A DNA stretch of 34,264 nucleotides from Rhizaria sp. SCN 62-66 (taxonomy: Eukaryota): NCBI GenBank assembly GCA_001724265.1, contig MEDY01000009.1:248001-282264 (forward strand), written 5' to 3'. Below the pieces are notes generated by a model. It worked only from the letters and a program-made list of their open reading frames with translations. It ran no database searches and was not told the origin of the DNA. The position numbers and the translations under genes were made by a program. Below, piece after piece: positions 1 to 27,462 of the stretch (position 1 is the stretch's first letter; each line of letters opens with the position of its first letter).

Positions 1-3000
1 TCGTGCGAGCGGTTGCGCGGCGCCGCCAGCACGCGCGGCGCAAAGCCCACGGCGCCGCGCGCGGGCTGGCCGGCGTAGCGCGCGAGCGTGGGCAGCAACG
101 CGGCCAGCGCGGCGGCGTCGATCCGGTTTGACGCGATCCCCAGGTGCGACACGCCGGGTGACGCGCGCACGAGTGTTGCCACCGCAGGCGCGTGCGCGGC
201 GCGCAAAGAGTTGGATGTCAGGTGCAGCGACTGCACGGCCGTCGTGCGCGTCGCCGTGACCGCCGCGAGTAGCAGCAGGTGCGCGGACGTCGCGGGCACG
301 GCCGTAGCAAGCGCACGCGCGGCTGCGGCCTCGGCAGCGACGGCGCTGTCGGTCGGCGACGCGGGCACGCCGAGCAGCTGCGGCAGGAAAGCTGGCAGCG
401 GCTGCGGCGCGGCGAGGTGCGGCGCGTAGGGCCGCGGCAGCAGATGCGGCCCCATGGGCTCAACCGGGTAGCCATAGTGCTGCGCGGGCGGGTCCGACTG
501 CACGACACACACGGATGCGGAGTCGACTGTGTCCGCGCCGTCGCCTGTACCGCTGCTCTTGCTGTTGTTCTTACTCCCGGCCGCGAGCAACGGCGCGCCG
601 CGAGCGTCAGCAAAGAGCGCGTACGGCACGCAGCGCGGGTACGCGTGGTTGTAGGCGTTGAAGTGCCGCCAGAACCGGCGGTTGGACGCGGCCATGTACA
701 GCACAGTCCACAGCGCGGCGGGCGACAGCGCGGCGGGCGAGGACGCGCCGTCAGTGCCGACGCCGATACCGCGGACCGACAGGCCGAGCGCGGCCGCGGC
801 GGCAGCGGTCGCCGAGGCAGCCGCAGACGCCGCCGCAGTGGCTGCAGACGTCGACGCAGCGTGCGTCAGAGCATTCGCATGCAAATGCGTGTGCACATGC
901 GACTGCAGGTGAGGCGGCAGCATCGCCGCGGCAAGCGCGTGGAGGTCGGGCACAACCGCCGGCAGCGACAGCGGGCGCGGCACGGTGATCAACGACGGCG
1001 CGATGCACGCCCAGAGCAGACGGGACAACGTGGCGGCAGCAGTGACGGTGACTGTAGAATGTGAAGAAGACGACGACGATGACGATCCAGACGAAGAAAC
1101 AACTGCTGAGGAGGATGCTGGGAACATGTGTCCATACGAAGCAGCGGCGGCGGCCACGGTCGCGGCGGCGGCGTCGGCGGCGTTGCTGCCTCTATTCGCC
1201 GCGGCCGTCAGCAATGCAAACGCGGCGGGTGACAGCGGGGGCAGAGCGGCAAGCAGCAGAGCAAGCAGCGGCGTGTGCAGCGCCAGCGGCGTCGGCACCG
1301 AGACGAAGGAAAACACGTGCGCAGGCTTAACCATCGTCACGCCGCCGTTCGCGGACACATTCGTCGCGACCGCGGCAGTCGACGTCGCAGCAGCGGCCGC
1401 GCTCGCACCATTCGCACCGGGCGCGCCCGCGTTAAAGGCGACGAACGCGTTCGCGGGCGCCGGCAGCGCGACGCGTACAGTCTGCGGCTCGGCGGTGACG
1501 GCGGCGCGCACGGCCGCGGTCGCGGGGGGACGCTGCGCGGTAAAACACGCAAACAGCGGGGCAGGGGAACGCGCGGCCGCGGGCGCGTAGGCCGTGTCCA
1601 CGCGCAGCGCCTCCATCATCGCAGTGGCCGCGGCGGCGCTCAGGGGACGCGTGCCTGTGATCACACGCGACGCGTCCGCGGCGGCGGCCGCCGCAGCGGC
1701 GGGCGCAAGCGCGGGCGCGGGGCCGAGCGGAGGCATAACCGGCAGGGCTTGACCCGCGGCAGTGACGGCCGGCAGCAGCGCACGAGGCCCCAGCGCGATG
1801 AGATTGCTAATATTGTTATCATTCGCAATGTTGCTGCCATTCGAATTAGCACTGCCATTGCTGTGGATGTTACTGTGGTTCGTAAGAGGGCTGGCGGTGC
1901 CGTGCGGGCGTGGCGTGGTCAGGTCGGCACCAGCGGCGGTGAGTACCGTGGCCAGCGGCGGCAGCGGAACGCCGTCGCAGGGCCCTGAGAGCGCGGCGAG
2001 CGGCGAAAGCGGCGCCGCGGTAACGGGTGACACGGACTCGGCCGCGACAAGCGAGCACGCCTGCGCCGCCGTCGGGCGCGGGCTCGTGGTGTTCCTTTGC
2101 TGTGGACCGTGCTGTTGCTGCTGCTGGTTCTGCTGCTAGCTCTGGTTCTGGGTCTGGCTCTGCTGCTGGGGCAAGTTAGCGTACGACAGTGGGACCGCCG
2201 TGCCAACCGAGAGCTGCCTGTATTGCGGCACGAAGGCATGCGCCTCGGCCGACGGCGGCGGCAGCGGCGGTGACCACAGTGCGCCGGGCGCCAGCGGCAC
2301 GCTCGAGAGCGCCCACAGCCACGGAAGCACCACGCGGTAGTGCCGCAGCGGCTTCACTTCCGCGTGCGGCTTGACTTTGTTCTGGTGCAGCAGAGCGCGC
2401 GCAAGGCGCAGCATCGGGTCAGCCAACAGCTGGGCAGCAGCAGATGCAGAGTCTCCAGTCTTGGCATGGGGATTCTTGTTGGCAGCAGCAGCAAGCAGTT
2501 TGTTGTGGCGCCAGTCACGCTTTGCGGCCGCAAGCGCGCGCCGCGCCGTGGTAAACGCAATGGCGACGGCAAGCTGGTCAGCAATCGACGCGGAGCGCGC
2601 CAGCACCGCAGTGACGTCGCCCTGGGTCGGGACTGGGCCCGGACCGGCGGCACCGCTCCTGCTCTTGCCGGCGCTGCTGGCCTTGCCGTCTCTGGCGTCG
2701 AGAGGACTCGAGTCGGTAGAACGGACGTGCGCCGCCTGGGCGCCAACATCGTTGCTGTTGCTGCTCGTTCCAGCTCCGGTTCCTGTCGCCGCCACGCCGC
2801 TGCCGGAGGAGGAGGGGAGCGTCACTGGCAGGCCTGAGAAGGCGGGCGTGAGCGCGGGCAGCGCTTGCGCCAGCCGCGCGGCCTGCGGCGACGACAACGA
2901 GGCCAGGTCTTCGACGCTCGGCAGCGCGCCGCCCGCAGCAGCGGCAGCGGCGGCGGCGACTGGGCCCGCGACGGCGACGGCGGCCTCTGCGAGCGCCAGA

Positions 3001-3878
3001 GTCAGTGCGCGGCGGTGCGCGCGCGCGGCCGACTCGCGGACCAGCCGCGGCAGCGAGCAGGGATGCGAGGGACGCACACGCGCGGGTGGGTGCAGCGGCA
3101 CGCCGTGCTGCTCCGGACGATGCCTGCCAGTCACAATTGTGGTGTTGGTGTCGGGGCGTTGGCGCTTGTGGCAAGCGCGGCAGCGACGGCGGCGGCCGGT
3201 ACTGTTGTGTACATCTTGCTGTTGATGCTGATGTTGCAGCTGCAGCTGATCCAAGTCGGCGGTTGACTGGCCGAGTGTGGGCGTGGTCGAGGACGCGGAT
3301 GCAATAAGCGCCGCGTCTAGGCTGGCTGACACAACACCGCCTCTGTTAGTCGCGGTCGCGGCAGCGGAAGAGTCAGAATGCGAAGCACGCGTGTCCGCAG
3401 CGACTCTTGCGCCGTTCGCAGCCAGTGTAGAGCTGCTAGTGGAGGGCGTGTTGTGCGCGGATGCCGGCGCGAGACCTGAGGCTGCAGCCGGGACGGGGGC
3501 GGAGACGGCCGCCTCGAAGGCCGTGTGCAGAGCAGTGACGACGGGGCCCGACGAAAAGGCCTCCGCAGTGAGCCCGTCCTGCGGCAACGTGGCGACCGCG
3601 GGGACGACAATTGCGGCGACGTGCGTGGCAAGCGAGGGGAAGTGGCGGCCCGTGATGAGCGTGCTGGGCGTAATCTCAGTGATGCACTGCCCCGAGCCGT
3701 CGGCGCCGGAGCCGTCGGCTGCGGCGTGCGCGGCCGCCGTGTGCTGCGCGTCGCTGCCCCAGACGCGCGTAATGCGCACGGCGTCGGCTGCGTTTGAAGA
3801 CAGCGCCGAGATCGCTGACTCGAGCGCGGCGCTGTTGATGAAGTTGGGGTGCGGGGGCGGGGTGAAGTAGGACGACAT
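1..3878 (-). CDS. Large Ala-rich protein with ribonuclease-inhibitor-like leucine-rich repeats; >1290 codons, runs off the left edge; one in-frame TAG at 2136-2138
   Basis: ATG at 3878, 580 codons, TAG, then the same frame stays open for 711 more codons to the window edge (scanned by hand, no further in-frame stop). Two LRR motifs, VQSLHLTSNSL (236-204) and VSHLGIASNRI (152-120), are exactly 28 aa apart, the RI-like period. Composition is similar on both sides of the TAG. Confidence 0.65.
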
Positions 3879-4441
3879 GGCGGGACGCGGAAGCGGGAGA
3901 CGCGACGAAGTCGGTCTGCGCGATTGAGAGGTAAGACTTCCCTGTACGAGTCTGCTGCAAACGCTTTAGTGATTGAAAGATGTGGGTATATCCTATACCT
4001 TGAAAAGAATTCTATCAGTGACGTTTAAATAGCGCAAACAGAATGAGATGAAATTGTGGACCGAGACAGCATCGCAAGATATGATGGCGCGTGAAAAGAA
4101 TCAACAAGGGAGCATATGTACGATGAATTCAAACAGAGATAAGACAAAGAAAGAAATAATGCACTTTTATGTCCAAAACCGACTGTATCGAAACACTTGA
4201 CGATGAAAATCTCGCGATATCTTTGATTATGGCCAAGGTAGTGAGGGCCTTTCTAAATCCAGATCTCGTCCTCGCTGAGGGATGATTGTCACGTTTATTT
4301 CAGGACAGCATGACAAGTCTAGATCGAGTAATAGTGACGTAAAATGAATGTTTTATTATACCACATAACCTCAAATCATCCTCCAACCCCTTTATAAATC
4401 CTTACACAGCACTAGCGCAATGCATCCCGTTGAATGCTCTC

Positions 4442-7165
4442 TTACGCGTTGACCTTGTTGGCGCGCTTGGTGGCGCTGGTGTTGTTGGCGGCCTTGAGCC
4501 CGCAGACGCGGTTGAACACGAGCTTGCTCTTGGTCTTGTCGTCATTGTCGATCACGGAGTCGGGGTCCACGCAGAAGTAGCCCACGCGGTCGAACTGGAA
4601 CGTCTTGCCGGCCGCGGCAACCGACTCGAGGAGAGGGGTCGAGACAAACGCCGTGGACACGACCAGCGACTGGGGGTTCAGGTCCTGCTTCCAGTCGCCC
4701 TGGAACGCCATAGGGTCCGCGGAGTTGAAGAGCTTGTCGTAGAGGCGCACCTCGGCGGTGGCCGGGGAGACGCCCGCGGCGGCCTCGGACACCCAGTGCA
4801 GCTTGGCGAAGGGCTTGACGTCGTTCTCGAAGTCAACCGTGCCCTAAAAGGAACAAAAATGACAATAAAATGTGGTGTTGTGAGGACAGTATAGCAAGGT
4901 ATTGATGAATATACTAACATGACCGAAGAATACATGAATATATCAATGATATAATACCAAAGCATGACTCTTTGTGAAGAAGACAGCAATTAGACGGGAC
5001 GCGTACCTGAAGCTCCTCGACGCGGCCGTCGGCGCCGATGGTCTGGCCCGTGAGCGTGACGTTGAATGCGTGGCGCAGGTGCGCGGTGCGGCCGGGCGCG
5101 AGGCGCAGGAAGCCCTCGACGGGCTCCAGCATGAAGTCGTCGCGCTCGATGTACACGACGCGCGTGAGCGGCACGTGGTGCACGTCACCAGTCTTCTCGC
5201 CGCCGGGCATGTTCGGGATCGCAACCGTGCGCGCGGGCGCGTCCACGGGCACGTTGGTGAGCACGAGGCGCAGCGGGTCGACGACGACCATGGCGCGCGC
5301 GGCGGAGAGGTTGAGCATCTCGCGCGCGGTCGACTCGATGCGCTCGTAGGGGATCATAGTCGCCGTGCGCGAAATGCCGATCGACTTGATGAAAGAGTTG
5401 ATGATCTCGGCCGTAATGCCGCGGCGGCGCAGGCCGTTGATCGTCAGCAGGCGCGGGTCGTCCCAGCCCGAGACGTGGTTCTCCTCCACGAGGGCGCGCA
5501 GACGGCGCTTGGACATGACGTTGTGCGTGATGTTGAGGCGGGAATACTCCCACACGCGAGGCTTGTACAGGTCCAGCTCGTGCAGCAGCCAGAAGTACGA
5601 CTCGCGACGCACCTCGAACTCGAGCGTGCACATGGAGAAAGTGATGTTCTCCAGCGAGTCGATGATGCAGTGCGTGTAGTCGTAGGTGGGGTAGATGCAC
5701 CACTTATCGCCAGTGTGCGGGTGCTTCGTGTACCGGATGCGGTAGAAAACCTGAAAAAAGGAATACAAGGCAAATCCAAAATAGTACAAAAGAGAGAAAT
5801 ATGAGGAGATGAAATTAAACCAATGACCAAAAACTGATATTGAATTAAGTAATTTGTTATAATGATCATCGATGCGATATGTTATCACAAAGCACGTACG
5901 GTGTCGAGCATGTTGGGGTTAGGGGACGAGAGGTCACCCTTCATGCGGAGCGTGCACTCGTTCTCCTTGCACTTGCCCATGCGCATGTCCTCGAAGAGCT
6001 GCAGGTTCTCCTCGACGGAGCGGTCGCGGAACGGCGACGCGGGCATGGTGCCCGTCTTCTTGTACTCGTCGCGGCCCTTACCGATGTCCTCCTTCGACTG
6101 GTGGCACACGTACGCCTTGCCCTTCTTGATAAGCTTCACGGCAAGGTCGTAGAGCTGGTCGAAGTAGTCGGACGAGTAGGTCGTCTTCCACGGCTTGTGG
6201 CCGAGCGCGGCGAGGTTCTCGAGGATCGTGTCGATGTACTCCTGCTCCTCGGCCTCGGGGTTGGTGTCATCGAACCGCATGATGCAGTGTCCGTTGTACT
6301 TCTGCGCGACGGAAAAGTTCTGCATCATCGCCTTGGCGTGGCCAAGGTGCAGGTAGCCGTTGGGCTCCGGGGGGAAGCGTGTGATGACACGGCCCTTTGT
6401 CTCGGCCTTGACGCGCTCGAGCTGCTCGGGGGTGTTGCGCGCCCACTCAAGCATGCGGCCCTGCAGCATGTCCTCGGGCGGGATCGTGAACTCGTCCTCC
6501 TCGCCCGCGGCGTCGCCCTCGGGCGTCTCGGCGGCCTTGGCGGCGGGCTTCGCGGCCGCGGCGGCGGGCTTCGCGGCGACGGCGGCGTCCTTCTTGGGCA
6601 GAGGCGCGCTGTCGGCGTCAGTCTTGGGACCAAGGCGCGCGAGCACGGCGGCGTCAAACTGAGCCTTGACAGCGCCGCCGTCAGCCCACTTGAGGGCCTG
6701 GGTGGCGGCGCCGAGCATGCGGCCGACGGCGCGGTAGCGCTGCACATCGAGGTCGTACTGCGGGTCCGCGAGGATGGCGTCGATGGCGGCAGAGATCTCC
6801 GCGGGCGTCACCACGACGCCGACGCCGCACTCCTTGTCGAACTCGGCGGCGTCGAACACCTCCTTCTTCTTGAAGTACGTCGCGGCGGCGTTGACCTGGG
6901 CGGAGGACTTGATGGCGCCAGAGACGACGCGCGCCCAGAGCTCCTTGCGCGAGGCGCGGATGATGGGGGAGCCGTCGACGCCAACCTTGGAGGTCAAGTT
7001 GTAGAAGACCTGGCCAACGGCCTTGTCGCAGCCGCCGGTGATGCCAGCCTCCTCGATGATCTGGTAGAGGGTGGCGGCGAACTTCTTGTTGTTGATGGTC
7101 TCGGCGGCGACCTTGGGGTCAAGGCCGATCGCCTTGAACACCTCGATGCGGGGGTCCTCAGCCAT
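4442..7165 (-). CDS. QARS1: Glutaminyl-tRNA synthetase, eukaryotic type; exons 7165-5900, 5750-5007, 4843-4442 (803 aa)
   Basis: TRFPPEPNGYLHLGHAKA (HIGH), RFDDTNP, HPHTGDKWCIYPTYDY, VMSKR (KMSKS equivalent), GWDDPRL, C-terminal FQFDRVGYF, plus a eukaryotic N-terminal extension. Splicing restores MLDT|VFYRIRY and EELQ|GTVDF. Ends TAA. Confidence 0.97.
4844..5006 (-). other. Spliceosomal intron 2 of GlnRS (163 nt, phase 0)
   Basis: GTACGC donor, ...gttcctttTAG acceptor, AT-rich; joins two open GlnRS-like exons in frame. Confidence 0.92.
5751..5899 (-). other. Spliceosomal intron 1 of GlnRS (149 nt, phase 0)
   Basis: GTACGT donor, ...cttttttCAG acceptor, AT-rich; removal restores conserved sequence. 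Confidence 0.93.
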
Positions 7166-7673
7166 GCTGCTACTAATATTAATAGGAGTAAGAGAAAATA
7201 GACAATGGCATAAACGTAGACGTGAGCGATATAGGAGACACTACGGTATTGAGATTGTGTTAGCAAGAACAATGGAGATGGGCCTCTCGCACTCCACATG
7301 CCGGGAGCCGAAACAAGGAAATCGGCGGACTTGGACGACGAGTTGAGGGATGCGAAAAAACGCATATATGAGAACAGCAAGATTTCTATCTAGAAATAAT
7401 CTTACAGAATCCAAACGACGTTGGCATGTCTTTCTAGAGACGCTCGAAAACAGCGGTCTGGGCCCTCTCTCTCGGCCTCGATTTTTTTGTGGCTGCGAGC
7501 ATTTTTGCGAACCTTGCCGCGCCGAAGCAAGCAAGCAAGGAGCACCGAGTGACGATTAAAATCATGTCTGGCTCTCTGTGTTTCGATCATTAAACAGCGC
7601 TGAGACCCTAGTTTCTGACTCTCCAAGAAGGTTTAGTTCCAAGGTTTTAATTACACGTGCTGGATCTGTTGGT
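7166..7673. promoter_or_regulatory. Divergent promoter region, GlnRS / Arp11
   Basis: 508 nt between head-to-head starts; contains GGTTCGCAAAAAT on the minus strand (7513-7501), similar to the motif in the other divergent gaps. Confidence 0.6.
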
Positions 7674-10713: not shown

Positions 10714-12957
10714 TTACCGGAGCTTGCGGAGGTTGCGGGAGGCGCAAAAGAAGAGGAAGAGGAACCAGCCGGAGTTGATGAGCAGGCCCTGCCAGACCTG
10801 CTGGTCGGCCAGGCCCCAGCCACGCGTCATGACCGCGCGCATGCCCGCCGCGGCCCAGGTCGTGGGGATGCCATAGGAGATCCACGACAGCGGGACGGGG
10901 ACGGCCTCGACGGGCCAGATGACGCCGGAGAGCAGCAGCGAGGGGAAGAAGGTGCCAAGGACCATCTGGTTGGCGGCGTCCTCGGACTCGGCGCCCGCGG
11001 CAATGACGAGGCCAAGCATCATGCCAACCATGCCGAGCAGCATGGCGATGGCCATGAGCAGCACAAGGTTGCCCTCCATGGGCAGCGAGAAGATGAGCAG
11101 CGCGACCGTGAGCAGTGCCGAGAGCTGGATGAACAGCAGCACCATCATGACGATCGACTGCGCGATCATAATCTCGCTGGGGCGCACGCCGGCGGCGTAG
11201 ACGCGGTCCATGTTGCCGCTCTTCTTCTCCACCACGAAGCCGAGCGCGGTGAGGCCAATGGACTGGGAGAAGGCAATGGCGACGATGATGCCCGGCGCGA
11301 TGAAGTCGGTGAACTTGGCAGACTTGGAGCCGTAAACGGCCTCCTTGAGGTAGATGGGCACCGACGTCGCAGCGGCCTCGGGCGCAAACTTGAGCACGGC
11401 GTGCTCAAACGCGCTCGCCACCTCGGTCTGCAGGAACGCAGAGATCTGCTGGTTGGTCAGGTCGAGGGAGATTTCAATAGTAGACTTCTTGATCACGTCG
11501 GGGTCGACGGAACCGTCCTTGTAGCGCTGCAGGAACGCGGTGGAGAAGCCGTCGGGAAGCTCGATAAAGCCCCAGGTGTCGCCGGCGCGCGCACTCTTGT
11601 GCGCCTTGTCGTGCGTCGTGAAGCGCTTGAGGGCGAGGTCGCCGTCCGAGTGGAGGAAATCGAGCATGTACGTCGCAATATCGCCCGACTGCGCGCCCGC
11701 GACAACGCCGAACGACAGGTCCTTGGGCGTGCCACCGATGGCAAGGCAGAAGAGCGTGACCTGCAGCGCCGGCATGATGAACTGGAAGATGAGGAAGGCA
11801 ATGTTGCGCACCATCTTCTTGTACGACTTCCACGCGAGCGCGGCCGTTACCGTCTTGCGCGGGCCCCAGGCGCAGCAGCAGCCCGTGTTGTCGGTGCGGT
11901 CGCGCGGGCCGTCGCTGTTCATGCCCAGCGGCAGGTGCTGGTTGTCGAAGGAGCCGAAGAGCGGCGCCATGTGCGCGGCGGAGTTCGTGTCGGCAGCGGC
12001 GGCGGCGCGCGCAGCGCGGTGCTCGTCGACGATGACGCGCGCCTCGGCCAGCATGCGGTCGTGCGCGATGGGCCCGTCGGCGTCGGCGGGGGCCGGCGCG
12101 TAGCCCTGGTCCGAGAGCAGAGCGTCCGAGTTAAGCGAGCCGGCGTGCGGGCCCACGGCGGGCAGCGGCGACTGCACCAGCAGCAGCTCCTCCTCAGCCT
12201 CGCCCAACGCCTGATCGCGCGAGTTACACAGGTGCAGGAAGGTGTCCTCGAGCGATGTCTGCTTGTACTTGCGGATGAGGAAGTCGGGCGAGCCCTGCTC
12301 GAGCATGCGCCCGTTGCGGATAAATCCCACGACATCGGCCTGACGCGCCTCCTCGATGTAGTGCGTGGTGATGATGATCGTCGTGCCCTGTGCGGCGAGG
12401 CGGCGCAGGTAGACCCAGATCTTGGCGCGCAGCGTGGGGTCGACGCCGACAGTCGGCTCGTCCAGCAGCACCAGCGACGGGTTGTGGATGAGCGTGACGG
12501 CAAGCGAGGCGCGGCGCTGCTGGCCGCCGGAGAAGGTGCCCACAGGCCGGTTGTCGCGGGGAAGCTCGAGGAAGTCGGTGAGGAACTCCTTGCGCTCAAG
12601 GTAGTCGCGCTCGGGCACGTTGTTGAGCTTGGCGTAGAAGTAAAAGAGCTCGTCGAGCGTGAAGGTATCGTGCAGAGCGATGTTCTGCGGCATATAGCCG
12701 ACGTCGGGGCCGGGAACGCCGTGGCCCGCGGAACCGGGGGTCTTGCCCAGCACAAGCAGCGTGCCCGAAGTAACGTCGAGCGCACCCAGAATGCAGTTGA
12801 GGAACGTGGTCTTGCCGCAGCCGGAAGGGCCGAGCAGGCCGTAAATGCAGCCGCGGGGCAGGATCATGCGCATGTCGCGCAGAACGTGCTTCGGGCCGTA
12901 CGAGCGGTTGACATTCTCCGCCCACACGCCAAAATCCTCCGGGTTCACGACGGACAT
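10714..12957 (-). CDS. ABC half transporter, NBD-TMD order, ABCH / Dictyostelium AbcG20-G23-like (747 aa, single coding exon)
   Basis: Walker A GLLGPSGCGKTT, Q-loop VGYMPQ, signature FSGGQQRR, Walker B LLDEPTVGVDP, H-loop IITTHYIEEA. ABC2-type TMD with a large extracellular loop after TM1 and LLLSGVIWPVEAVP. First ATG (MSVVNPEDF) at 12957; ends TAA. Confidence 0.9.
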   Translation of the reverse strand: MSVVNPEDFGVWAENVNRSYGPKHVLRDMRMILPRGCIYGLLGPSGCGKTTFLNCILGALDVTSGTLLVLGKTPGSAGHGVPGPDVGYMPQNIALHDTFTLDELFYFYAKLNNVPERDYLERKEFLTDFLELPRDNRPVGTFSGGQQRRASLAVTLIHNPSLVLLDEPTVGVDPTLRAKIWVYLRRLAAQGTTIIITTHYIEEARQADVVGFIRNGRMLEQGSPDFLIRKYKQTSLEDTFLHLCNSRDQALGEAEEELLLVQSPLPAVGPHAGSLNSDALLSDQGYAPAPADADGPIAHDRMLAEARVIVDEHRAARAAAAADTNSAAHMAPLFGSFDNQHLPLGMNSDGPRDRTDNTGCCCAWGPRKTVTAALAWKSYKKMVRNIAFLIFQFIMPALQVTLFCLAIGGTPKDLSFGVVAGAQSGDIATYMLDFLHSDGDLALKRFTTHDKAHKSARAGDTWGFIELPDGFSTAFLQRYKDGSVDPDVIKKSTIEISLDLTNQQISAFLQTEVASAFEHAVLKFAPEAAATSVPIYLKEAVYGSKSAKFTDFIAPGIIVAIAFSQSIGLTALGFVVEKKSGNMDRVYAAGVRPSEIMIAQSIVMMVLLFIQLSALLTVALLIFSLPMEGNLVLLMAIAMLLGMVGMMLGLVIAAGAESEDAANQMVLGTFFPSLLLSGVIWPVEAVPVPLSWISYGIPTTWAAAGMRAVMTRGWGLADQQVWQGLLINSGWFLFLFFCASRNLRKLR

Positions 12958-13919: not shown

Positions 13920-16900
13920 ATGTCCTATGCTGCCTCGCGCTCTCCGCGCGGCGCCGCAGCGTCCGATCAACAACTTCAACATCAGCAGCGGCTCCTTCGC
14001 CAGCAGCAGTTACAACAGCAGCAGCAGCGTCAGCAGCAGCAGCCTCAGCCTCAGCGCCAGCCTCAGCGTCAGCAGCAGCACTACTCCACGTCTGCGTTGG
14101 ATGACAGTGACGGCGGCTCCGGCGGCGTCGTCGTTGTCTCCCCCTTTGACGACGACGATGATGGCGACCGCTACCGCTACGGCGACGGCGACGACGGCGC
14201 TCACGACCCCCGTGGCCACAGTCACCGGGGGCACAGTCGCAACGACAAAGACGACGGCGACGACAGCACGGGCTTCCACGTGCCCGTACCCGCCAACGCC
14301 ATCGGCTACGGCAACGTCGGGGGTCACGACCACGACGACGACGGCTACTTCGACGGCGACGACACGGGCGCCGACGGCGGCAACAGCAGCGCGGGGCTCA
14401 ACGGCCGCGACGACGGATTCTACCACGGCGACGGGCAGCGCAGGCCGCACCCCCGGTCCGCCGCCGCCGCAGGTGCTGTGTCAACGGCGCGCCCGACGGC
14501 GTGGTCGCGCGCCCGCGCGCGCGGAGCTGACGCGCCGACGCTCGTGGACCGGCTCGCCGTGTGCATGTGCTCGATGCAGGGGCTCCTGCTGTGCATGGTG
14601 CTGGGCGCGTGCTTTACTATCGCCTTTGCAGTTATCTCGACGGCGCTGCTGAACCCTTCCTCCGCCGGCAGCGGGTTGATCCACATCACACCGCCCGCGC
14701 AGCCCACGATGCCTGGCGTCCCTGCGAGTCCTTCGCAGCCGCTGCAGCCCGCGACGCCGGCCATCGAGCCAGTCGACGGCACCGTCACACCGGGCACGGA
14801 CGCGACACCCACGCCGGCGACGACGCCAGCGACAGACGCGGGCTCGGTGGGTGGGGTGACGACGCCTCCCGCGACTGGCACTGACTCCGCTCCGGACGCG
14901 GCCACGGCGACGACTGTGCCGGCCCCGGAGACGGTTGCAGCAAGCGAGCTGACTGGCCCCGGCACGCAGGCGCTCTACACCCACCCGCTCCTCGCTGCCA
15001 ACGGCGCAACCACAGGCCACGGCGGCGCTGCTGTGGGCACGCAGTCTCTGGCGAGCGCGTTCGTGCCCTGGACGCTCGCGCCCGCGGGCTCCTACTTCGC
15101 GCCCCTGTCCAGCGCGCTCGCGCGCGCGGTCACGGCAGACTCGATCGACGCCGCCGCCGCGCTCGTCGCTGCCCCCGCCGCCGCCTCGGACAGCACGGCG
15201 GGCTCTGTGGGCGGCGCGCCCGTGTACACGCCCGAGAGCGCGCTGAGCTCCGGACTCTTCTCCCCCTCGGACAGCAACGGACAGTACTTGCACTCGGTGC
15301 CCAAGGCGACGCTGCTCGAGTCGGCCGCCGCTCTGCGCTTCGCCGCCGCCGCCGCGTCGGCCACACTGACGCCCGCTGCGACGCTCGCCTCGTCCGCGGT
15401 GCGCGACGCCGCGTTGTCGCTCGCAGCATCCGTGCCCGCCGCCACCGCCGCCCTGGCCGGGGACGCCGCCTCCGCCGCCGCTGTGGGCAGCCAGTCGCTT
15501 CCCGGCGTTGCGGCCGCGAGCTTCGCGGTGGGCGCGGTCGGCGCGCGCTCCGGTGCCATGGCCCTGATGCAGTCTCTGCTGCCGGCGACTCCCGCGACGC
15601 CGGCCATCGCGCACGTGTCATACATGCCCGCTCTGCCCGCAGCCTTTGCGGCCGACGCTGCGCTCGCCGCCGCGGCCGCCGCCGCCGTGGCCGACTGCGC
15701 CGCAGTGCCGGCCAGCGTGGGCGGCGACCGGCTGCGCGCGCTGCTCGCGCTGCAGGGCGTGACCGCGACGCCCGCGCTCAACCTCGCGTCCCGGCCGCTG
15801 TTCGTGGCCGCCGACGGCGCCGCCAGAGAGGGCGGCGCGCCCGCCCTACCCTCGGTCGCGGGCATGCTCTCGGCGGCCGCGGCGGGCGGCATCGCGTCCG
15901 CGGGCGCCGCCACGGGCTCCGCGCCCGCGGCGGGCAGCTCGCCGCTGCCCACGGTCGGCGAGGACTGGCTGCTCTGGGTCCGCGCGCCGAACGGCTGCGC
16001 GGCACTCTCCCTCACGGCCTCGCAGCGCCGCTGGCTCGCCGCCGCGGGTGCCACGGTGGCGCGCGAGATCCGCGCCGCGCGCGCGCTGGCCCCGGCGTCG
16101 GTCGCCGAGTCCGTCACCGCGGCGGGGCGCAAGTCCCCCGTGGTAGCCGACAGCGGTATCACGCTCTGGGACGGACCCTGGGATGCGCTCGTGTCGGCCA
16201 ACGCGACGGCCACGCGCGCGGCCTTCGAGAGCACGCTCATGACTGCGCTGCTGACGGCCGCGCCGCTGTTCAACGCCACCGTGGCCGACCCCGCGATGGC
16301 GACCGTGGTGTCCTCGGTCATGCGCGCGTTCACGGGCTCGACCGCGTTCTCCGCCGCCTCGACGGACTTGGCCGCGGTCACCGCGATGGCGTGGCAGCTC
16401 GACGCGCCCGAGGCGCTCGCGGTGCCTGTGCTGCCCGCGACCGTGCCGGGTACTGTGGTCTCCACGATCGCCGAGCAGGGCCCCGTCAAGAACCCGCTGT
16501 ACGGCACCAACCTGCAGTGCTACCCGGACATCTCCACCACGGGCCGCGGCGCCTACTCGGGCGTCTGGAGCGTCGCTTTCCCGCTGACCAACCCCGCCAA
16601 CGCCAGCGAGGCCACCGTGATCGTCTCCGCAACGCGCGCTGTCACGCCGCCCCAGCACGCTACTCGCGCCGCTATCCCCGGCGTCGCTTTCGCTGCTACC
16701 GCAACTGCGACCTCTGCGAGTGCGAGCGCGATTGCGTCGTCGAGCACGGGCGCAGACACGGTCGCGGTGGACACCGACGGCTACGCGTGGCGCGTGCTCG
16801 CCTCGCTGCGCGCCGGCAAGCTGCCCCCCGTGCTCTCGCGCGCACTGCTGCTCTCGCCCTCTGCCGCTTCCGCCGCTTCATCGGGCGCGGCGCAATGGGG

Positions 16901-19900
16901 CGCGGGCCGCGTGTGGACCAAGGTCACCGCCGGCACGCACGCCGTCACCGGCGAGATGTACATTCCACCAGTGACGGCTGAGGAGGCGCTCGCGGCCGTC
17001 AAGAACGAAGACTGTGCCGCCGAAAACGGCTGCACTGCGTACTACGTCCCCGCGGCGTTTCCGTTCCCCTCGCTCGCCGCGCAGAAGCTCGCCGAAGCGC
17101 TGGCCACTGCGCGCGCGATTGCAGCCGCGTCGGCCCCTGTGGCGAACAACACGGACACGCCCGCGGCTGCTGCTGCTGCTGCTGCTGCGTCGAACAGTGT
17201 GGGCGAGGGCGTCATCGCCGGCTTCGACTCGCCCGACCTGATCGCGCCGATGCTGGCCGCGCTTGCGACCCCCGGCAGCGGCGGCAGCGCCGCGCTGTCC
17301 GCGGCTATCGCCGCCGCGTCCCACCGCGCCGCCGCGCCGCAGTCCGCGCCCGCTGCACCCGGCGGCGCGCGCGGCGGGCAGCGCGTGTGGTTGCTGCTGC
17401 GCGGCGTGTCGTACCGCGCGCACGCGGCGCTCAACGGCGTCGCGCTGGCACCGCTGCCCGACGCCGACGGCGGCGACGCCGAGGCCGCGGTGGGCATGTT
17501 CCGCCGCGCGTGGTACGACCTCACGCCCGCGGTCGCCGCGACGCAGGGCGCGGCTGCGACGGCCACGGTCGGCAACGCCACCGCCGTGGACGTCGCGATG
17601 ACTGCGCTGGTGCGATACTTGGCGACGCTGACCCGCGAGGAACGCGCGGACCTGATCTCGGTGGCCACGGCCGCCACGACGGGCGCGCACACGGCCAAGC
17701 CTGAGGCGGCGGCGCTGGCGCGGCTGGCTGACCACCTGCGCGTGCGCGGCAGCGGCACCGCGTCGGGCAGCTCGGTGGTCACCTCCAAGTCCGCCCCCGT
17801 ACCCGTGCCCGCAGTCTTCTCCGCCGAGTTCTACTTCCTGCTGCTCTCGCACGCCTGGGCGCACCACGCCGCGGCGCCCACGGCCGCCGGCACCGAAGCC
17901 TCGGCGTCAGCGGGCAAGCCGGGCACGCGCGGCAGCGCCGGGCTGCCGCCGCACGAGGCACTGGCCGCCGCGGCGCGGCTGCTGTCGTCAGTGAGCGCGG
18001 GCACAGCGTTCCCGGCGCGCGCGCTGCCGTCGGCGGCGCTTGCGCAGCAGGCCGGCGCGGCGCTGCTTTCGGGCGCCGTCAACTCGGCGCCGCCGCGGCT
18101 CGTCACGCGCGCGTGGGCGTCGCTGCACCGGCTCTCGGTCGCGATCGAGCCAGTGCCGCACCCCGACACACCGGGCAGCCAGGGCGGCCGCACTAAGTCG
18201 CTCGGCCGCAGCGTTAACTCGCAGTACACGGGCGGCTGGGACTGGATTGAGGGCACGCCGGACCGCAACACGGGCCCCTGGGACGACGTCTCGCTGCGCT
18301 ACACCGGCAACTGCCTGATGCGCGACCCGCATGTGTGGTCCGAGGGCCACGACTCCGCCACCGCGGCCACGGTGCGCGCCGAGGTCGAGCTGCTCAACGC
18401 CTCCCCCGACCCCATCGTCGTGCACGCGCGCTACACCGTGCGCTCCGCCAGCGGCACCAACGCGACGAGCGAGGTCTCGGCGTCGGTGCCCGTGCTGTTG
18501 GCGGCCTACGCGCGCACAAAGGTCGTGTTTCCGCCGCAAGCGCTTGTGAAGCCGCGTCTTTGGTGGCCCCACGGCCACGGTGAGCAACACCTCTACGCCG
18601 CGACGTTCAACTGCGACGACGTCTCTGTCCCCTCTGCCGCGGCTGCAGCTGGCGCTAAGGGCGCGTCCACCGCGGCGACCTCGGCGAGTGCTGCGGCCGC
18701 GGCTGTGGACGGGCTGTATAGCGCGTTCCTCGCCGCCGCCGACGAGACCCTCGCGCGCGAGCTGACGCCCGTGCTCGACCGCTGGTCCGCGTCGCCCGCC
18801 GTGGCGGCCGTGACGAACGCGCCCGTGTACCTGCTGCCCGCGCCCGCGCCGGCGATGATCCGCCTGCGCGCGGGCGCCGTGGGACAGGACCCGCTGTCGA
18901 GCGCTGGCTTCATGGCCTGGGCCAGCGCGCTGCCCGCGCAGGTTGCGCCCACGGTCAGCGAGGCCGGCGCGCTGCTGCAGAGCGCGATGCCATCGCGCTA
19001 CCTCACGCGCATGCCGCAGACCGCCCCCGCGACGTCGTACGCCGCCACATATAGCGAGCTCGCCAAGAACCCCCTGTGGCGCTCGCTGCCGCCCGCGATC
19101 GGCCTGGCCAGCTCGCTGCCGACGCTGGCGTACCAGGCGCTCGGCTACGCGCCCGCCGAGGCCCCGGCCGGCGCGGCGCTGATGCCGCACGCGTTGCGGC
19201 CCGTGTTCGGCCCCGCCGGCGACGCCGTGGTGGCCGCCGCGACGCGGTCCAACATCGACGCCGTGACCGCGCGCGTGGTCGCCGTGTTGCCCGCCAGCGC
19301 GCTGGCCACGCACGCCGTCCGGAACGCCGGCGACGTGCCTGTGCTCACCCTGCGCGTGCGCGCCACCGTGCACGCGCTGCTCGCGCCTATTGGCGGCGGC
19401 AGCGGCAACGGCCCCGCGGGTGCGTCGACGGTCAGTCTGTACGACCTGCTGACCGCGGGCCTCGGACCATGGTCGACGTCGCCGCTCTCGTCGCCACTCG
19501 ACGCGCGTCCTCCCACGGACGCGCCCTCCGCCGCGGCCGCCGTGTCTGCCACCAGCGCCGCGCTGCCGCCGGCCGTGGCCTCCGCCCTGGCCGCCGCCGT
19601 CGCCGCCGCCGTCGCGCCGCTGGGCTACCTGCAGCACGCGTCCGTGGCGACGGTGCTCCCGCTGCTCGAGCACGTCATGCGCGCGCACGCGCTAGAGCAG
19701 CAGAACCAGGTCGTGCGCCCCACGCAGGCGCCGCGCCGGCTGCTCGCTGAGGCACTCCCCGCGCTCCAGCTCCACCGCCAAGGCAGCGCGCGCGGCACGT
19801 TCCTGTCCCACAACGGCGTGCTGGCCACGTCACTCGGCGGCGCCGGCGCGGGCAACCTCGTGCAGGCGCAGCAGCGGCGCGCCGGCCAGTCTGGTGCCGG

Positions 19901-22900
19901 CGACGAAGCGGGGCTTCACGGCTACTACGCTTCCGCGGCGTCCAAGCCCTTTGTTTCGGTCACCGCGAAGCTTGCCGCCGCGCAGTCGGCGCCCTACGGC
20001 GCCGCGCCGTCGCCCGCGTCGGTGCACAAGTGGCCCGCGCGCTACGCCCCGCTTGTGCGCTTTCACGCCGCGAAGCTCTCGGTGCGCGCGCTCGCCGCCG
20101 CCGGGCTGCCCGCCGGGTCCCCGGGCGCCGCGGCTGTGTCGGACAGCCAGACCGTGCGGTTCGGCGTCCGCGACGTGCACGTGGCCAACGCGCGCATGCC
20201 CGCGGCGCAGTCCCCCGCGCCGCTGGTGCTGGTCAACGGCAAGCGCATCTACACGCGCGGTGGCAACTGGATCGCGTCCGACCAGCTCCTGCGCGGCTCC
20301 TCGGACAGGCAACGGTACTTCGACGAAGTGCAGCTGCACCGTGACGGCGGCATCAACATGATCCGCATCTGGGGCGGCGCGACGGCGGAGCGTCCCGAGT
20401 TCTACGAGGCCTGCGACGAGCTGGGCGTGATGGTGTGGCAAGACTTCTGGCAGAGCGGCGACGTCAACGGCCGCTGGGGCGGGCGCTACGAGTGGCCTGA
20501 CGACCACTCGCTCTACATCGCCTCGATCCGCGACACTGTTCGCCTCCTCCGCACACACCCGTCGCTGGTCATTTGGTGTGCCGGCAACGAAATCGACCCG
20601 ATTGACCGGTCACCGCAGCCTTCGATTCGCGCGGCGATGTTCGACGCCATTTGGTCCGTGCGCCGCGACGACTCCTACCTCGTCCTCGACTCGGGCTCTC
20701 CGGCCACCGCGCGCCGCCTCTTCCTCTCCTCGACCTCGGGTGGCAACTCGCTCTTCGCTTTCGCGCCCGCGGACGGGCCTTACGACGTGCAGACCATGAC
20801 GGGCTTCTACGGCGGCTCGATGCAGTTCCGCATGCCGTTCAACCCTGAGCTGGGCTCGTCGGGCACGCCGTCAGCGCTGTCGCTGCGGCAGATGCTCGCC
20901 CCCGCGGACCACGTGCCGCCGCCGCAGGGCGCCAACGCCAACGGCGCGTCGCGCGGCTGGGTCTTCCACAAGTTCATCCAGTACTACGACACGGCCCGCG
21001 TGGACCACGTGTACCAGATGCACACGCCGGCCTCGACGCCGACGACCGCCGCGCTGTCGACTGCCGACGCGCGCGCGGTTTCCCGCGCCGAGCACTTGTT
21101 GTTCCCTAACACGGTTCTCGCGCCGCCGCCGGCCGCGCCGTTGGACGTCGAGTCGGACGGCGAGGGCACGGGCACGGGCGGCGACGCGGGCATGACGATG
21201 GACCGCTACGCGACGTCGGCGCTCATGGTGAACCTGATGCAACACCGCGCCATCATCGAGAACACGCAGGCGCACGCCTTCACGCGCCACTCGGGCGTCG
21301 TGCTGTGGAAGTCGCAGGGGCCCTGGCCGCACCTCCGCGGCGGGCTCTACGACTACTACCTCTCGCAGCAGGGCGCGCTCTACGGCACGCGCCACGCCGG
21401 CGAGCAGCTCCACGTCCAGTTTGACTACGGCTACTCTGCGGGCAACAGCAACGGGCCTGTCGCCACGCTCACCGGCGCGCCCGCCAACGGCGTCGTGCTG
21501 CGTGCCGCCTCCGCAGTCAGCGAGGGCGACGTCAAGCCCTTGCCGGCGCCGACCGCGGCCGAGACCGCGCTGGCGACGGCCGCGGAGGCCGCGCTGGAGG
21601 CCGCGCACGCCGCGGACGCGAAGCGTGCTGCGACGGCGGGCAGCGTGACCGTGCGCTCCCCGCCCCTCGCGAGCGCCGCGGACGGCGCTGGTCGCGCGAA
21701 CGAGCAGCTGGTGTACCCGTTCGCCAACGTGGCCATCACGGCGGCGACCCCGGGACTGAACCCGGGCGGCTCGACCACGCGCAAGCAGGTGCAACTGTCG
21801 CTCTTCACGCTGCGCCACGGCTGGGAGGCCGCGCCCGGGCGCGCGCTGCCCTACTGCGCGCTCTCGCCCAAGACTGCGCCCATCCAGCGCACGCTCACTA
21901 ACGCCGCCGTGCTCGTCGCCGCCACCGCGGGCGCGCCTCTGGCCGGCAACTCCCCGCTGGCCTTCGCGCACACGCCCGCGCGCGGCGCGATCCCCGACGC
22001 GCTGGGCGGCGAGTCGCAGGCCGCACTCGACTTCTGGGCCGGCAAGGGCGCCATCGTCGGCGCCGGCACCGTGTACTCAGCGCCCGCGCCCCCCGTGGTG
22101 GAGAAGTCGCCCTTCGAGGGCATCTTCGCCGAGCTGGGCACTGTGGTGCGCCCCTCTGCAGTTGCCGCTGCGCAGGTCGAGACCATCGACGAGCAGGAGC
22201 GGCTGCGGCGGCTCTGGCGCGGCACGCAAGACGCCGCCGCCGCCGCTGCCGGGCAGACCGGCGTTACACCTGACCCGTCGCAACAGCCTGGCCAGGGCCA
22301 GCAGCAGCTGCAGACCGGCAGCGCTAGCGCCAACTCGCCCGTTTTTCTCCCCGCGCTCGCCAACGCCACCGCGCACGGCAACCCGGCGTTCTCGCCCGCG
22401 GTGACCGTGGACGCGTACACCGCGGCGTGGGCGCTACAGCCGCCCGCGGCCCCGCGCGCGCCGACGGCGGCCGATGGGACCCCGCGCAAGGCCGCGCTGG
22501 CTGAGGTCCCGCTGCGCGCCGCCGCCGTGCCGGTCGGGTGGAGCATGGGCTCTACTGCGGGCTGGACCGAGGCCGCGCGGTCGCCCTGGGAGGTCCCCGC
22601 CGCGCTGCCGGTCGACTCGCCCGCCGTGGCCCCCGGCGCCGCCGCGTTCGCGCACTCGCACGCACCCGGCACTGCGGGCAGCAGCAGTGTGTCGACGGGC
22701 GCGTTCCACCTGTACCTGCCGGACTCTGCGATCGAGGGTCCGCACGCAGGCCCCCGCAGCGACGAACCCGTGGTCGCGGCCAGCGCTCTTACGGTGACCT
22801 ACAACGCTCACCCGCGCACGTGCGCCGTGTGGGCGGACCGCGAGGTATCCTCGGACCCGCGCGAGAGCCCCGTGCGCCAGGCTGTGGCGACACTCGACGT

Positions 22901-26479: not shown

Positions 26480-27175
26480 ATGGCTGTCCACCCTTCGGCC
26501 GCTGTCGTTCCTGTCGCTGGCCTTGTGGCAGTTCCCTCTCCTCGCAATCCCCACGCCGCTGCTACCGAAGTCCTCAAGAAGTCAGCCCAAAATGCAGCCT
26601 CGACTGCCGCGAGCAAAGTTGCTGCGACCAACGCAGCCGCTGCCGCCGCCACCGCCGCAGCCAACGCAGCCGCTGCAGAGGCAGCAAGTGGCGATGACGC
26701 AGCAATCGCTGCCTACAAACGCCTTGCTGCCGCTGCTGTTGCCGCCACCGCCGCTGCCTTGACCGCCACCGACTAGTCTGCGATTGCTGACGAACATTTC
26801 GCAGCGACCTTCGCCGCAAATCAAGACAACTGGCATTTCGCGATGTTCTTCTCCGTAGTGCCGCAGCTGCGTAAGATCAAGGCCACGGCCCACGACATGA
26901 ACGCAAAGTTGAACTGGGCTCATGCGTCGGCGCTCGACCTAAATGCGAGGCTGGCCAAGCTTTATTCGGCGGTGGGCGACAGGAACGCGAGGCTAACCAA
27001 GATCAATTCGGTGGCTGTCGACATAAACGCGAGGCTAACCAAGATCCATTCGGTGGCGGTCGACATGAATGCGAGGCTAGACAATATCAATTTGGCGGCG
27101 GTCGACACGAACGCGAGGCTAACCAAGATCAATTCGATGTTGTTGACACGAACTAAAAGCTGGTCGCGCTGCTGA
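26480..27175 (+). CDS. Orphan Ala-rich / coiled-coil repeat protein (231 aa if TAG 26774-26776 is decoded); alternatively a pseudogene
   Basis: ORFs 26480-26776 and 26843-27175 share a frame, and the 22 codons between them are stop-free. A candidate 5' intron (GTACGT at 26373 ... ccttccatcaTAG 26479) abuts the ATG. No family recognised. Confidence 0.45.
26897..27156 (+). repeat. About six tandem 42-nt units encoding a 14-aa repeat (xNARLTKINSVAVD)
   Basis: Units start at 26897, 26939, 26981, 27023, 27065 and 27107 (41 nt), with a partial seventh at 27148. Confidence 0.9.

Positions 27176-27428: not shown

Positions 27429-27462
<34 letters not shown>
27429..27462 (+). repeat. T34 homopolymer (A34 on the minus strand)
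   Basis: Counted directly; the only long homopolymer in the window. Confidence 0.95.

Follow-up and report, generated by a model that had tools for sequence, protein, structure and literature searches.

Organization of the locus and continuity of the reading frame

The window, that is, the whole stretch of DNA analysed here, comprises 34,264 nucleotides of contig MEDY01000009.1 (assembly GCA_001724265.1, Rhizaria sp. SCN 62-66). The first part of the window carries two genes on the minus strand, namely a long gene whose frame contains a single TAG and a glutaminyl-tRNA synthetase (GlnRS) gene that was used as an internal control. The features are the following:

2139..3878, minus strand: upstream coding part, 580 codons from the ATG at 3878, Ala-rich and of low complexity (identical to database protein P0003)
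2136..2138, minus strand: in-frame TAG (T at 2138, A at 2137, G at 2136), codon 581 of the gene, present in the sequence, in the DNA of run X3 and in the RNA of run X5
2097..2168, minus strand: Gln-rich tract, PQQQSQTQNQS*QQNQQQQQHGPQQ, with Gln at 15 of the 30 positions that flank the stop
3..2135, minus strand: downstream coding part, in frame with the upstream part, 711 codons to base 3, continuing beyond the window (frame analysis and database protein P0002)
96..245, minus strand: two RNI-type (LRR_6-like) leucine-rich repeat units, a weak match and the only recognisable motif of the gene (alignment with P0004)
4442..7165, minus strand: GlnRS, with exons at 7165-5900, 5750-5007 and 4843-4442, recognised by Pfam and ending in TAA

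Around the stop, the minus strand reads CAG AGC CAG ACC CAG AAC CAG AGC TAG CAG CAG AAC CAG CAG CAG CAA CAG, with C as the base 3′ of the TAG, CAG as the next codon, and the TAG itself within the palindrome GCTAGC. In the resulting pattern, Q S Q T Q N Q S [*] Q Q N Q, the TAG takes a Gln slot and lies one transition from CAG. A preliminary description of this DNA had placed the TAG in a CAG slot of a Gln tract, within a frame open for 580 codons before and more than 711 after it and with no AT-rich intron or UTR in between. All three observations hold: the Q-x-Q-x pattern predicts CAG at this position, the frame runs from the ATG at 3878 to base 3, and the GC content between the halves is approximately 0.70, with no AT-rich stretch, in contrast to the AT-richness of the proven introns and of the intergenic DNA. 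The database open reading frame P0002 (1,263 aa) extends the frame past the end of the window by about 586 codons, which brings the coding sequence after the TAG to approximately 1,297 codons and a predicted read-through product to 1,878 aa.

The gene's frame contained no stop in either the 580 or the 711 codons, compared with 5–20 in each of the other five frames over the same stretches, and a second stop was absent from these 1,291 codons of the window as well as from the rest of P0002. The GC content at the three codon positions was 0.68/0.54/0.86 before the TAG and 0.72/0.70/0.82 after it, and the codon-usage log-odds was highest in the gene's frame in 43 of 44 sliding windows over both halves; the lone exception (3248-3069) lies well upstream of the TAG, in a region (3338-3069) that is weak overall. 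The earliest ATG 3′ of the TAG is located at 1736, 134 codons on, and the intervening stretch is still coding-like. Both halves are thus parts of one gene, with third-position GC content (GC3) and codon log-odds continuous over the stop.

Similarity, composition and database calls

Pfam assigned no family to the upstream half, the downstream half or P0002 (E ≤ 1 for P0002). Residues encoded at about 245-96 aligned with the RNI-type repeats of one NACHT-LRR protein (P0004; 30–36% identity, E 1.5e-7), which according to Pfam consists of a NACHT domain and 32 LRR_6 repeats. Of the LRR motifs previously reported downstream of the stop, what stands is this weak RNI-type match, in which just about two repeat units align; Pfam recognised none, and Atlas feature matches to LRR_6 clusters (0.88–0.89) are leads only. 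A full HMMER search of 1,835,955,588 representative proteins (E ≤ 0.001) returned the gene's own two pieces and the one weak LRR match, while a word-indexed search with residues 430-900 gave no match beyond its own piece P0002. Likewise, a 120-aa query centred on the TAG had 0 matches among 135 candidates in short-contig fragments of 66–210 aa, and neither the 596 pattern matches in metagenome contigs nor the 600 in genome contigs included a confirmed copy of the target. Judging from these searches, the gene is a lineage-specific orphan of about 1,878 codons, and its protein contains 24% Ala and 3.2% Gln. In the database, the locus is split into P0003 (580 aa), which corresponds to the upstream open reading frame, and P0002, which begins at an internal GTG; prokaryote-style gene calls have here cut a eukaryotic gene into two database proteins.

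The neighbouring GlnRS gene and the host organism

The GlnRS gene contains two AT-rich introns of 149 and 163 nt, both of the form GTACG...YAG and with long pyrimidine tracts. A spliced contig of 2,507 nt from run X5 joins the gene at 5748|5898 and 4842|5006, both introns being gone at exact GT..AG borders, and the bin depths at the introns (8.38 and 9.88) match those expected from exon cover only in a contig of depth 17.2 (approximately 8.3 and 9.7). Because the introns were removed and the bin depths fit exon-only cover, X5 represents RNA, not DNA, of the host organism.

The host, a GC-rich uncultured eukaryote, is known only from metagenomes of bioreactors and wastewater. A GlnRS with 75% identity (P0005) is encoded on a 14-kb contig, and a 2,214-nt metagenome contig (L001) showed 100% identity to GlnRS residues 1-66, adding no ortholog of the target gene. 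In a tree built from 40 hand-picked sequences of the 120 matches listed, the query fell in a clade of seven (SH-aLRT 100) whose other six members are metagenome proteins, and the GlnRS of named organisms showed 39–47% identity to it. Elsewhere in the window, an ABC transporter matched arthropod-type ABCH clusters in the Atlas search, which is uninformative on host affiliation.

The TAG in independent DNA and RNA

The TAG was recovered in material from other studies. A 5,247-nt contig of run X3, a DNA data set from another study and year, covers 404-5650 with 0 differences, including the TAG, and the 683 X3 records together yielded a single counted difference, T>C at 1625. In run X5, an RNA-seq data set from a third study, a 450-nt contig of depth 8.86 (1933-2382) spans the TAG without a gap. 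Relative to the window, X5 shows differences at 2046, 4619, 5094 and 6790 but retains the TAG; the sole counted A>G lies at 4619 and the sole C>A at 6790, so that no X5 change removes the stop. Additionally, run X4, which comes from a more diverged strain, contained a 313-nt contig over 2046-2358, a range that includes the TAG, with 1 difference, and run X7, a polyA library, contained contigs on both halves, with none over the TAG and none spliced among the contigs listed. Cover of the target gene by X5 and X7 is partial, the 5′ end being among the uncovered parts. No CAG allele was seen at 2138-2136 in the compared runs, X3 and X5 reading TAG, and the samples that carry the allele date from 2015, 2017 and 2024 and belong to three studies.

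The TAG is therefore fixed in at least two haplotypes that differ slightly, or is at least the sole allele assembled from them, and the mRNA carries it unspliced and unedited. The base-call error that had been considered for 2136-2138 is rejected, since the X3 contig is identical and X5 also reads TAG, and the DNA and RNA contigs over these positions gave no sign of error, splicing or editing.

Two kinds of candidate joint were considered and discarded. A joint at 2137|2938 in X3 (three contigs, side of 21) was read as a repeat or other-organism artefact, given that both of its sides are CTG/GCN repeats and that joints with a side below 30 often have such an origin. Mini-introns running from GTACGC (49 nt) or GTCGTA (52 nt) to the TAG are GC-rich, both have a length of 3n+1, and the X5 contig is unspliced there.

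Use of TAG in the window

TAG occurred once in 8,308 codons and made up one of 246 CAG+TAG codons. If TAG were a free synonym for Gln, about 23 would be expected, by analogy with a TTG/(TTG+CTG) share of 9.3%, and the Poisson probability of seeing one is about 3e-9. The six other open reading frames contained no TAG in 7,016 codons, against 206 CAG and 21 CAA. Specifically, no TAG was found in the four Pfam-recognised genes, i.e., GlnRS exon 1, PARP, the ABC transporter and OST3, or in an open reading frame of 3,835 codons, and a six-frame scan of the window revealed no other stops inside GC3-rich sense frames. The preliminary description had favoured decoding of this UAG as Gln, by reassignment or readthrough; with one TAG against about 23 expected and none in the conserved genes, the first of these finds no support, and it is very unlikely that TAG has become an established Gln codon.

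Regarding termination, the six other genes (GC3 about 0.90) end in TAA (five) or TGA (one), and a TAG that seemingly ends GlnRS is intronic. The bases following the six genuine terminators are G, A, A, T, G and G, none of them C. As no window gene ends in TAG, its role as a terminator in the host is an assumption; under an assumed share of one fifth of genes ending in TAG, its absence from all six would arise with a probability of about one quarter. A second in-frame TAG is situated at 26774-26776 on the plus strand, between open stretches of 98 and 132 codons. Among the codon positions of the preceding stretch, GC content is lowest at the third, and the stretch after it consists of a 42-nt tandem repeat present five times, which is a self-sufficient open frame with its own ATG; as a sense codon, this second TAG is ambiguous. 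The window contains no tRNA genes.

Context of the stop codon

The classical leaky motif after a stop is CAR-YYA. Here, the C at +4 and the CAG as next codon are present, while a 5′ Gln codon is absent and so is the YYA half, the two codons after the TAG being CAG CAG. The 119 nt from the stop onward folded with a minimum free energy of -40.1 kcal/mol, compared with a mean of -39.0 for shuffled sequences (z -0.33; 72 of 200 shuffles as good), and thus no stimulatory RNA structure was detected just 3′ of the stop.

Programmed readthrough between two long coding segments is known from Drosophila kelch and headcase, the UAG of MuLV gag-pol is read as Gln, and tobamoviruses use UAG-CAA-UUA. As in this group of cases, an in-frame UAG parts two long coding segments of one mRNA here and is followed by CAR, and of the two segments the one 3′ of the stop is the larger and contains the recognisable motif. 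In contrast to them, the present UAG has no downstream structure and lacks the YYA half of the plant viruses, and its position in a repeat slot predicts that CAG changed to TAG recently, with no ortholog found by which the stop's conservation could be gauged.

A closer parallel comes from yeast, where, according to the portions available to us of a 2026 preprint (PMC13192750), premature stops in Gln-rich low-complexity domains (snf5-Q225X, snf5-Q267X and cyc8 and whi3 alleles) leak enough for normal growth, with the +4 C and flanking Gln codons contributing. The same portions state that a C at +4 weakens termination, which is in line with the leaky context suspected here from the outset, that a few percent of full-length protein can suffice for function, and that tRNA-Gln is proposed to restore the original residue by mispairing at the first codon position. 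Like those alleles, the stop at 2136-2138 replaces a Gln codon in a Gln-rich tract, with C at +4 and a Gln codon next. Unlike them, it is a natural allele of an uncultured organism, neither engineered nor screened, and is known here from nucleic-acid sequence. In addition, the QXQ motif described for yeast is half present, the 5′ neighbour here being AGC (Ser), and two further features reported in that source are less favourable in our gene: CAG is less permissive than CAA, and the flanking Gln codons here are CAG; readthrough scales with the Gln content of the whole protein, which here is only 3.2% (PMC13192750, as far as available). Leakiness of this UAG is, by analogy, plausible.

Origin of the TAG and alternative explanations

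A C>T nonsense allele, one of the alternatives named in the preliminary description, is the most likely origin of the TAG. The codon lies one base from the sense codon that the tract predicts and is a single lesion in the frame, and the pattern of the tract suggests that the ancestral state was CAG. The explanation that we favour, with a probability of roughly 55%, is a CAG>TAG substitution under the standard genetic code, at which tRNA-Gln may permit a low rate of readthrough. One C>T change would have converted a CAG of the Gln-rich tract into TAG, and most ribosomes would terminate there and release a 580-aa product. Given the weak context (UAG-C, CAG next, Gln at half of the 30 flanking positions), Gln may be inserted by a few percent of the ribosomes through near-cognate tRNA-Gln(CUG), which would complete the ancestral full-length protein; such low-level completion would account for the tolerance of the allele. 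A mutation that is simply young would fit the intact downstream frame just as well. Against the favoured explanation count the occurrence of the allele in three studies from 2015 to 2024 and the 1,297 downstream codons without a second lesion, both of which selected readthrough predicts.

Selected (programmed) readthrough, in which the UAG is maintained and yields a 580-aa short form together with a low-rate, LRR-like long form of 1,878 aa through a near-cognate tRNA-Gln, is a minority reading to which we give perhaps a third of the weight of a possibly leaky point mutation. It accounts for a TAG that persists over nine years in two haplotypes, for a full coding signal directly after the stop, for a stop that lies upstream of the gene's only recognisable motif, and for a context, UAG-C followed by CAG, of the kind that the available parts of PMC13192750 describe as weak. 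Among the strain differences listed, four of five downstream are synonymous, compared with two of four upstream (44 further differences lie beyond those listed); changes older than the stop would show the same bias towards synonymous differences. The two haplotypes that share the TAG are about 0.1–0.2% apart, and haplotype divergence overall is only about 0.1–0.5%, too little to separate selection from youth, and both the intact downstream part and the persistence of the allele are therefore expected of a young neutral allele as well. The searched databases provided no orthologs in which the stop could be seen to be conserved, the fold had a z of -0.33, the YYA was absent, and a stop placed exactly in a CAG slot resembles a fresh transition.

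Somewhat less probable still is a dead gene, in which the nonsense mutation truncates or inactivates a dispensable orphan, the downstream part is untranslated and decay is yet to come. The narrow set of matches at E ≤ 0.001, limited to the gene's own pieces and one weak LRR match, fits a dispensable gene, as does its Ala-rich, low-complexity sequence, and the sampled haplotypes diverge so little that the downstream frame should be intact even in the absence of selection. Contigs from RNA libraries on both halves and over the stop argue against it, as does a context of the kind that leaks in yeast (PMC13192750, in the portions available). This reading and the tolerated, perhaps leaky substitution differ solely in whether the leak matters.

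A young or partial reassignment of UAG to Gln, or a suppressor tRNA, with TAA and TGA left to terminate, is improbable. Under such an early, ambiguous capture, TAG would be avoided as a terminator and tolerated as a rare Gln codon, and 2136-2138, possibly with 26774-26776, would be its first sense uses. There is a precedent in Iotanema spirale, in which, as described in the available part of the source (PMC5304391), UAG alone was reassigned to Gln and UAA was kept as a terminator. As in that organism, UAG occupies a position predicted to be Gln, TAA terminates most genes (five of six here) and no TAG terminator was seen, in spite of a GC3 of about 0.90; unlike there, as far as that part goes, TAG is about 20-fold rarer here than a free synonym and is absent from the window's conserved genes. 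The placement of the host in a GlnRS clade without named organisms is consistent with an unusual code, and so is the second in-frame TAG. However, the single TAG among 246 CAG+TAG codons, its absence from the four conserved genes and the 3,835-codon frame, the unsurprising lack of TAG terminators at the assumed one-fifth share, the ambiguity of a second TAG set by a low-GC3 stretch and a self-open repeat, and a window without a tRNA gene all weigh against it.

Least probable, and largely refuted, is a sequencing error, a small intron, RNA editing or two abutting genes, which could draw on the split database calls and on a GTACGC hexamer, which also forms the donor of GlnRS intron 2 and is here followed by CTAAC, 46 nt before a TAG that could serve as a YAG acceptor, but which conflicts with the identical X3 DNA contig, with an X5 RNA contig (1933-2382) that has neither a joint nor a stop-removing change, with the 3n+1 length that a GT at 2187 or 2184 and an in-frame AG always give, leaving the frame, with the dissimilarity of the surroundings of the TAG to the AT-rich, pyrimidine-tract introns of 149 and 163 nt, with the absence of an AT-rich spacer between the halves and of any ATG for 134 codons, and with the prokaryote-style nature of the calls, P0002 starting from an internal GTG.

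Implications

The present case is modest: an orphan gene contains one in-frame stop that is real and transcribed, and the rest of the window behaves according to the standard code. The most likely reading of the TAG is a point mutation that is tolerated and perhaps leaky, not a new genetic code. If the stop is leaky, the allele would be a natural, population-level counterpart of the engineered yeast result, in which, according to the portions available of PMC13192750, CAG-derived nonsense codons in Gln-rich tracts are partly self-correcting via tRNA-Gln. With tRNA-Gln restoring the original residue, Gln tracts would tolerate C>T nonsense mutations, and such self-correction has been put forward as an intermediate step towards the recurrent reassignments of UAG and UAA to Gln.

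In-frame TAG and its reading frame

The preliminary description had noticed a TAG in a CAG slot of a glutamine tract, and the minus strand indeed reads CAG AGC CAG ACC CAG AAC CAG AGC TAG CAG CAG AAC CAG CAG CAG CAA CAG, with the TAG at 2138-2136 and Gln accounting for 15 of the 30 residues flanking it. The open frame reported around it was also found, comprising 580 codons from an ATG at 3878 to the TAG (codon 581) and 711 open codons from there to the window end. P0002, the database ORF covering the downstream piece, showed 100% identity over the downstream part and extends past the window end; if read through, the gene has 1,878 codons, 1,297 of them 3' of the TAG.

This openness is not explained by high GC, since the target frame contains no stop over both stretches versus 5-20 in each of the other five frames, GC on both sides of the TAG is 0.82-0.88 at codon position 3 versus 0.46-0.70 at position 2, and codon-usage log-odds, trained on the window's six other ORFs, ranked the target frame first in all but one of the 44 sliding windows. 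The remaining one (3248-3069), where another frame scores equally, lies far 5' of the TAG within a weak-signal patch of the upstream half (3069-3338, minus strand), which encodes an Arg/His/Cys-rich segment.

Genomic context

The window comes from the nuclear genome of a eukaryote whose introns are conspicuous, as shown by the glutaminyl-tRNA synthetase (GlnRS) gene, which is split by AT-rich introns. GC reaches 67-78% in coding stretches and about 47-56% in spacers. The following features were annotated:

4442-7165, minus strand: eukaryote-type glutaminyl-tRNA synthetase with two AT-rich introns
5899-5751 (149 nt) and 5006-4844 (163 nt), minus strand: GlnRS introns, GTACG...YAG, confirmed by a spliced RNA-seq contig
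Neighbour of the target gene in the window: actin-related ORF
10714-12957, minus strand: half-size ABC-2 transporter, nearest language-model clusters of arthropod ABCH type
13920-25427, plus strand: intron-free, Ala-rich ORF of 3,835 codons with weak glycoside hydrolase family 2 pieces
26480-27175, plus strand: locus with a further TAG, followed by an open stretch with a tandem repeat (protein motif approximately NARLTKINSVAVD)
Plus strand: PARP with WGR, regulatory and catalytic domains
Minus strand: OST3/OST6 protein
33668-34262, plus strand: ribosomal protein L19e, running past the window end

Read without splicing, GlnRS appears broken and seemingly ends at a TAG, which was rejected as its terminator because it lies within the second intron. 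The glycoside hydrolase pieces of the 3,835-codon ORF cover residues ~825-2225, and its size is unusual for such an enzyme. Frames remain open before the first ATG, with no start codon, in PARP (28599-28706, plus strand, 36 codons) and OST3 (32752-33075, minus strand, 108 codons), whose true first exons probably lie farther upstream, behind introns; L19e is apparently split by an intron between ~33802 and 33954. Between the repeat ORF and PARP, the AT-rich sequence includes a run of 34 T (27429-27462). The six terminators identified (4442-32751) are dominated by TAA despite a GC3 of ~0.90, in a small sample.

Public runs containing this stretch came from bioreactor, wastewater and activated-sludge metagenomes. 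Among the matches listed for GlnRS exon 1, the closest was a metagenome protein (75%), followed by five more at 54-58%, and proteins of named organisms shared 39-47% identity. A quick tree of 40 sequences hand-picked from the 120 listed matches grouped the query with six metagenome proteins in a clade of seven (SH-aLRT 100).

Presence of the TAG in DNA and RNA

Four public sequencing runs were compared with positions 1-7300. In X3, a DNA run from another study and year, a 5,247-nt contig (404-5650) spanned the TAG with zero differences and zero gaps, and this independent contig rejects an assembly error as well as the base-call error that had been offered as an alternative. The only difference counted anywhere in X3 was T>C at 1625, and its assembly held no alternative-allele contig at the TAG.

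Run X5 is an RNA-seq cDNA library, for which an automated guess had returned "probably DNA". Its 2,507-nt GlnRS contig contained the joins 5748|5898 and 4842|5006, exactly both GT..AG introns, and depth in the intron-containing bins (8.38 and 9.88) equalled the exon fraction expected from a contig of depth 17.2; X5 is therefore essentially free of DNA of the source organism. X5 contigs map 5' of, over and 3' of the TAG. The one spanning it (1933-2382; 450 nt, depth 8.86) has no gap, no joint and two differences, one being G>A at 2046 and the other falling outside the listed positions, in a listing where a well-supported internal change would precede the depth-3 rows shown. Since the single A>G counted in X5 lies at 4619 and the single C>A at 6790, no stop-removing change affects 2136-2138. 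On the question of splicing or editing raised earlier, the run tables imply that the UAG is present in the mRNA, neither spliced out nor edited. X5 departs from the window at four positions (2046, 4619, 5094 and 6790), so the TAG is present on at least two haplotypes. In a third run, X4, a 313-nt contig (2046-2358) spans the site with one difference, whose position was not printed.

Gene product and strain differences

The target gene is a fast-evolving orphan to which RNA-library contigs map. Full HMMER searches against 1,835,955,588 representative proteins returned three matches at E<=0.001, two being the gene's own halves and the third a NACHT-LRR protein matching over ~55 residues (E 1.5e-7). 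The leucine-rich repeats proposed downstream of the TAG are weakly confirmed: two RNI-type units (encoded at ~245-96) align pairwise, while Pfam gave no family match for either half. Language-model look-alikes of the protein were LRR_6 clusters (0.88-0.89, low recognition), which serve as leads only.

Among the listed differences, 4/5 were synonymous 3' of the TAG, 2/4 were synonymous 5' of it, and 18/25 in GlnRS, including a divergent patch. This patch (6095-6230, exon 1) differs in X4 at 15 places in 136 nt, mostly synonymously, against ~0.5% elsewhere, and points to a further haplotype or relative, at greater distance, in the X4 sample. The downstream counts hint at purifying selection on that part, but 44 further differences lie outside the listing and the changes may predate the TAG. 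TAG-bearing haplotypes diverge by ~0.1-0.2%, so little that, by our estimate, a 3.9-kb frame free of selection would in most cases have survived intact. Given this low divergence and the possible age of the changes, a young nonsense allele and maintained readthrough are not told apart by either the intact frame or the bias towards synonymous changes. We consider selected readthrough possible but doubtful, and plain gene death, with which the same intact frame is compatible, somewhat less probable still.

Genetic code

The preliminary description had taken UAG to be decoded as Gln, by reassignment or readthrough. Across the 7,016 codons of the other six ORFs, CAG occurs 206 times, CAA 21 times and TAG not at all; the target gene has 39 CAG, 9 CAA and one TAG. 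With the synonymous first-position pair CTG/TTG as analogue (TTG, 9.3% of the pair), an ordinary Gln codon TAG would be expected ~23 times among 246, against one observed (Poisson P ~3e-9). A six-frame scan for single stops between GC3-rich open stretches gave a sense-frame match at the target TAG only, its other rows belonging to frames that mirror genuine genes. These results reject TAG=Gln as an established code.

A young or ambiguous UAG reassignment is improbable on these counts; in its favour are the six terminators (TAA 5, TGA 1, TAG 0), a number carrying little weight, and the precedent of Iotanema spirale, in which UAG alone is decoded as Gln and UAA is still a terminator (PMC5304391). 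The further in-frame TAG at 26774-26776 (plus strand) is ambiguous as sense use, because the 98-codon stretch before it (Ala-rich, ATG start) is poorest in GC at the third codon position, and the 132-codon open stretch after it is a 42-nt tandem repeat (x5) with its own ATG, ending in TGA. No Pfam family matched 26480-27175 (plus strand).

Alternative gene models

A 49-nt mini-intron ending at the TAG, from GTACGC (2184-2179; the hexamer at the donor site of the second GlnRS intron) through CTAAC, was rejected: every GT/AG pair is 3n+1 and leaves the frame that has coding signal on both sides, the candidate is unlike the proven introns, and the X5 contig is unspliced. Two abutting genes were likewise rejected, as there is no ATG for 134 codons, coding signal resumes right after the TAG, and composition bears out the earlier remark that no AT-rich spacer separates the halves. 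P0003 (580 aa), the database protein for the upstream piece, and P0002, with its internal GTG start, are prokaryote-style calls on eukaryotic DNA. An artefact or mis-modelled gene is accordingly the least credible explanation.

Origin and possible leakiness of the TAG

The tract alternates Q-x-Q-x, and because the TAG occupies a Q slot one transition from CAG, it almost certainly arose by CAG>TAG. Its termination context appears to be on the weak side, judging from the C after the TAG, CAG as next codon and the Gln-rich neighbourhood; the six genuine terminators have G, A, A, T, G and G in that place, never C. No stimulatory RNA structure was found 3' of the TAG (z -0.33).

A 2026 preprint on yeast (PMC13192750) describes 2-8% full-length protein from nonsense codons within Gln-rich domains, with Gln inserted at the stop, contributions from +4 C and flanking Gln codons, and normal growth with ~5-7% full-length Snf5. 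In the same study, however, the local effect needs both flanks, CAG is less permissive than CAA, and readthrough scales with total Gln. The parallel is weakened because the target has AGC as 5' codon, CAG as next codon and low total Gln (3.2%, against 24% Ala). Overall, we favour, with a probability of roughly 0.55, a CAG>TAG nonsense codon that is genuine and transcribed, lies in the Gln tract of an orphan gene of an organism using the standard code, and is plausibly, though unproven, leaky.
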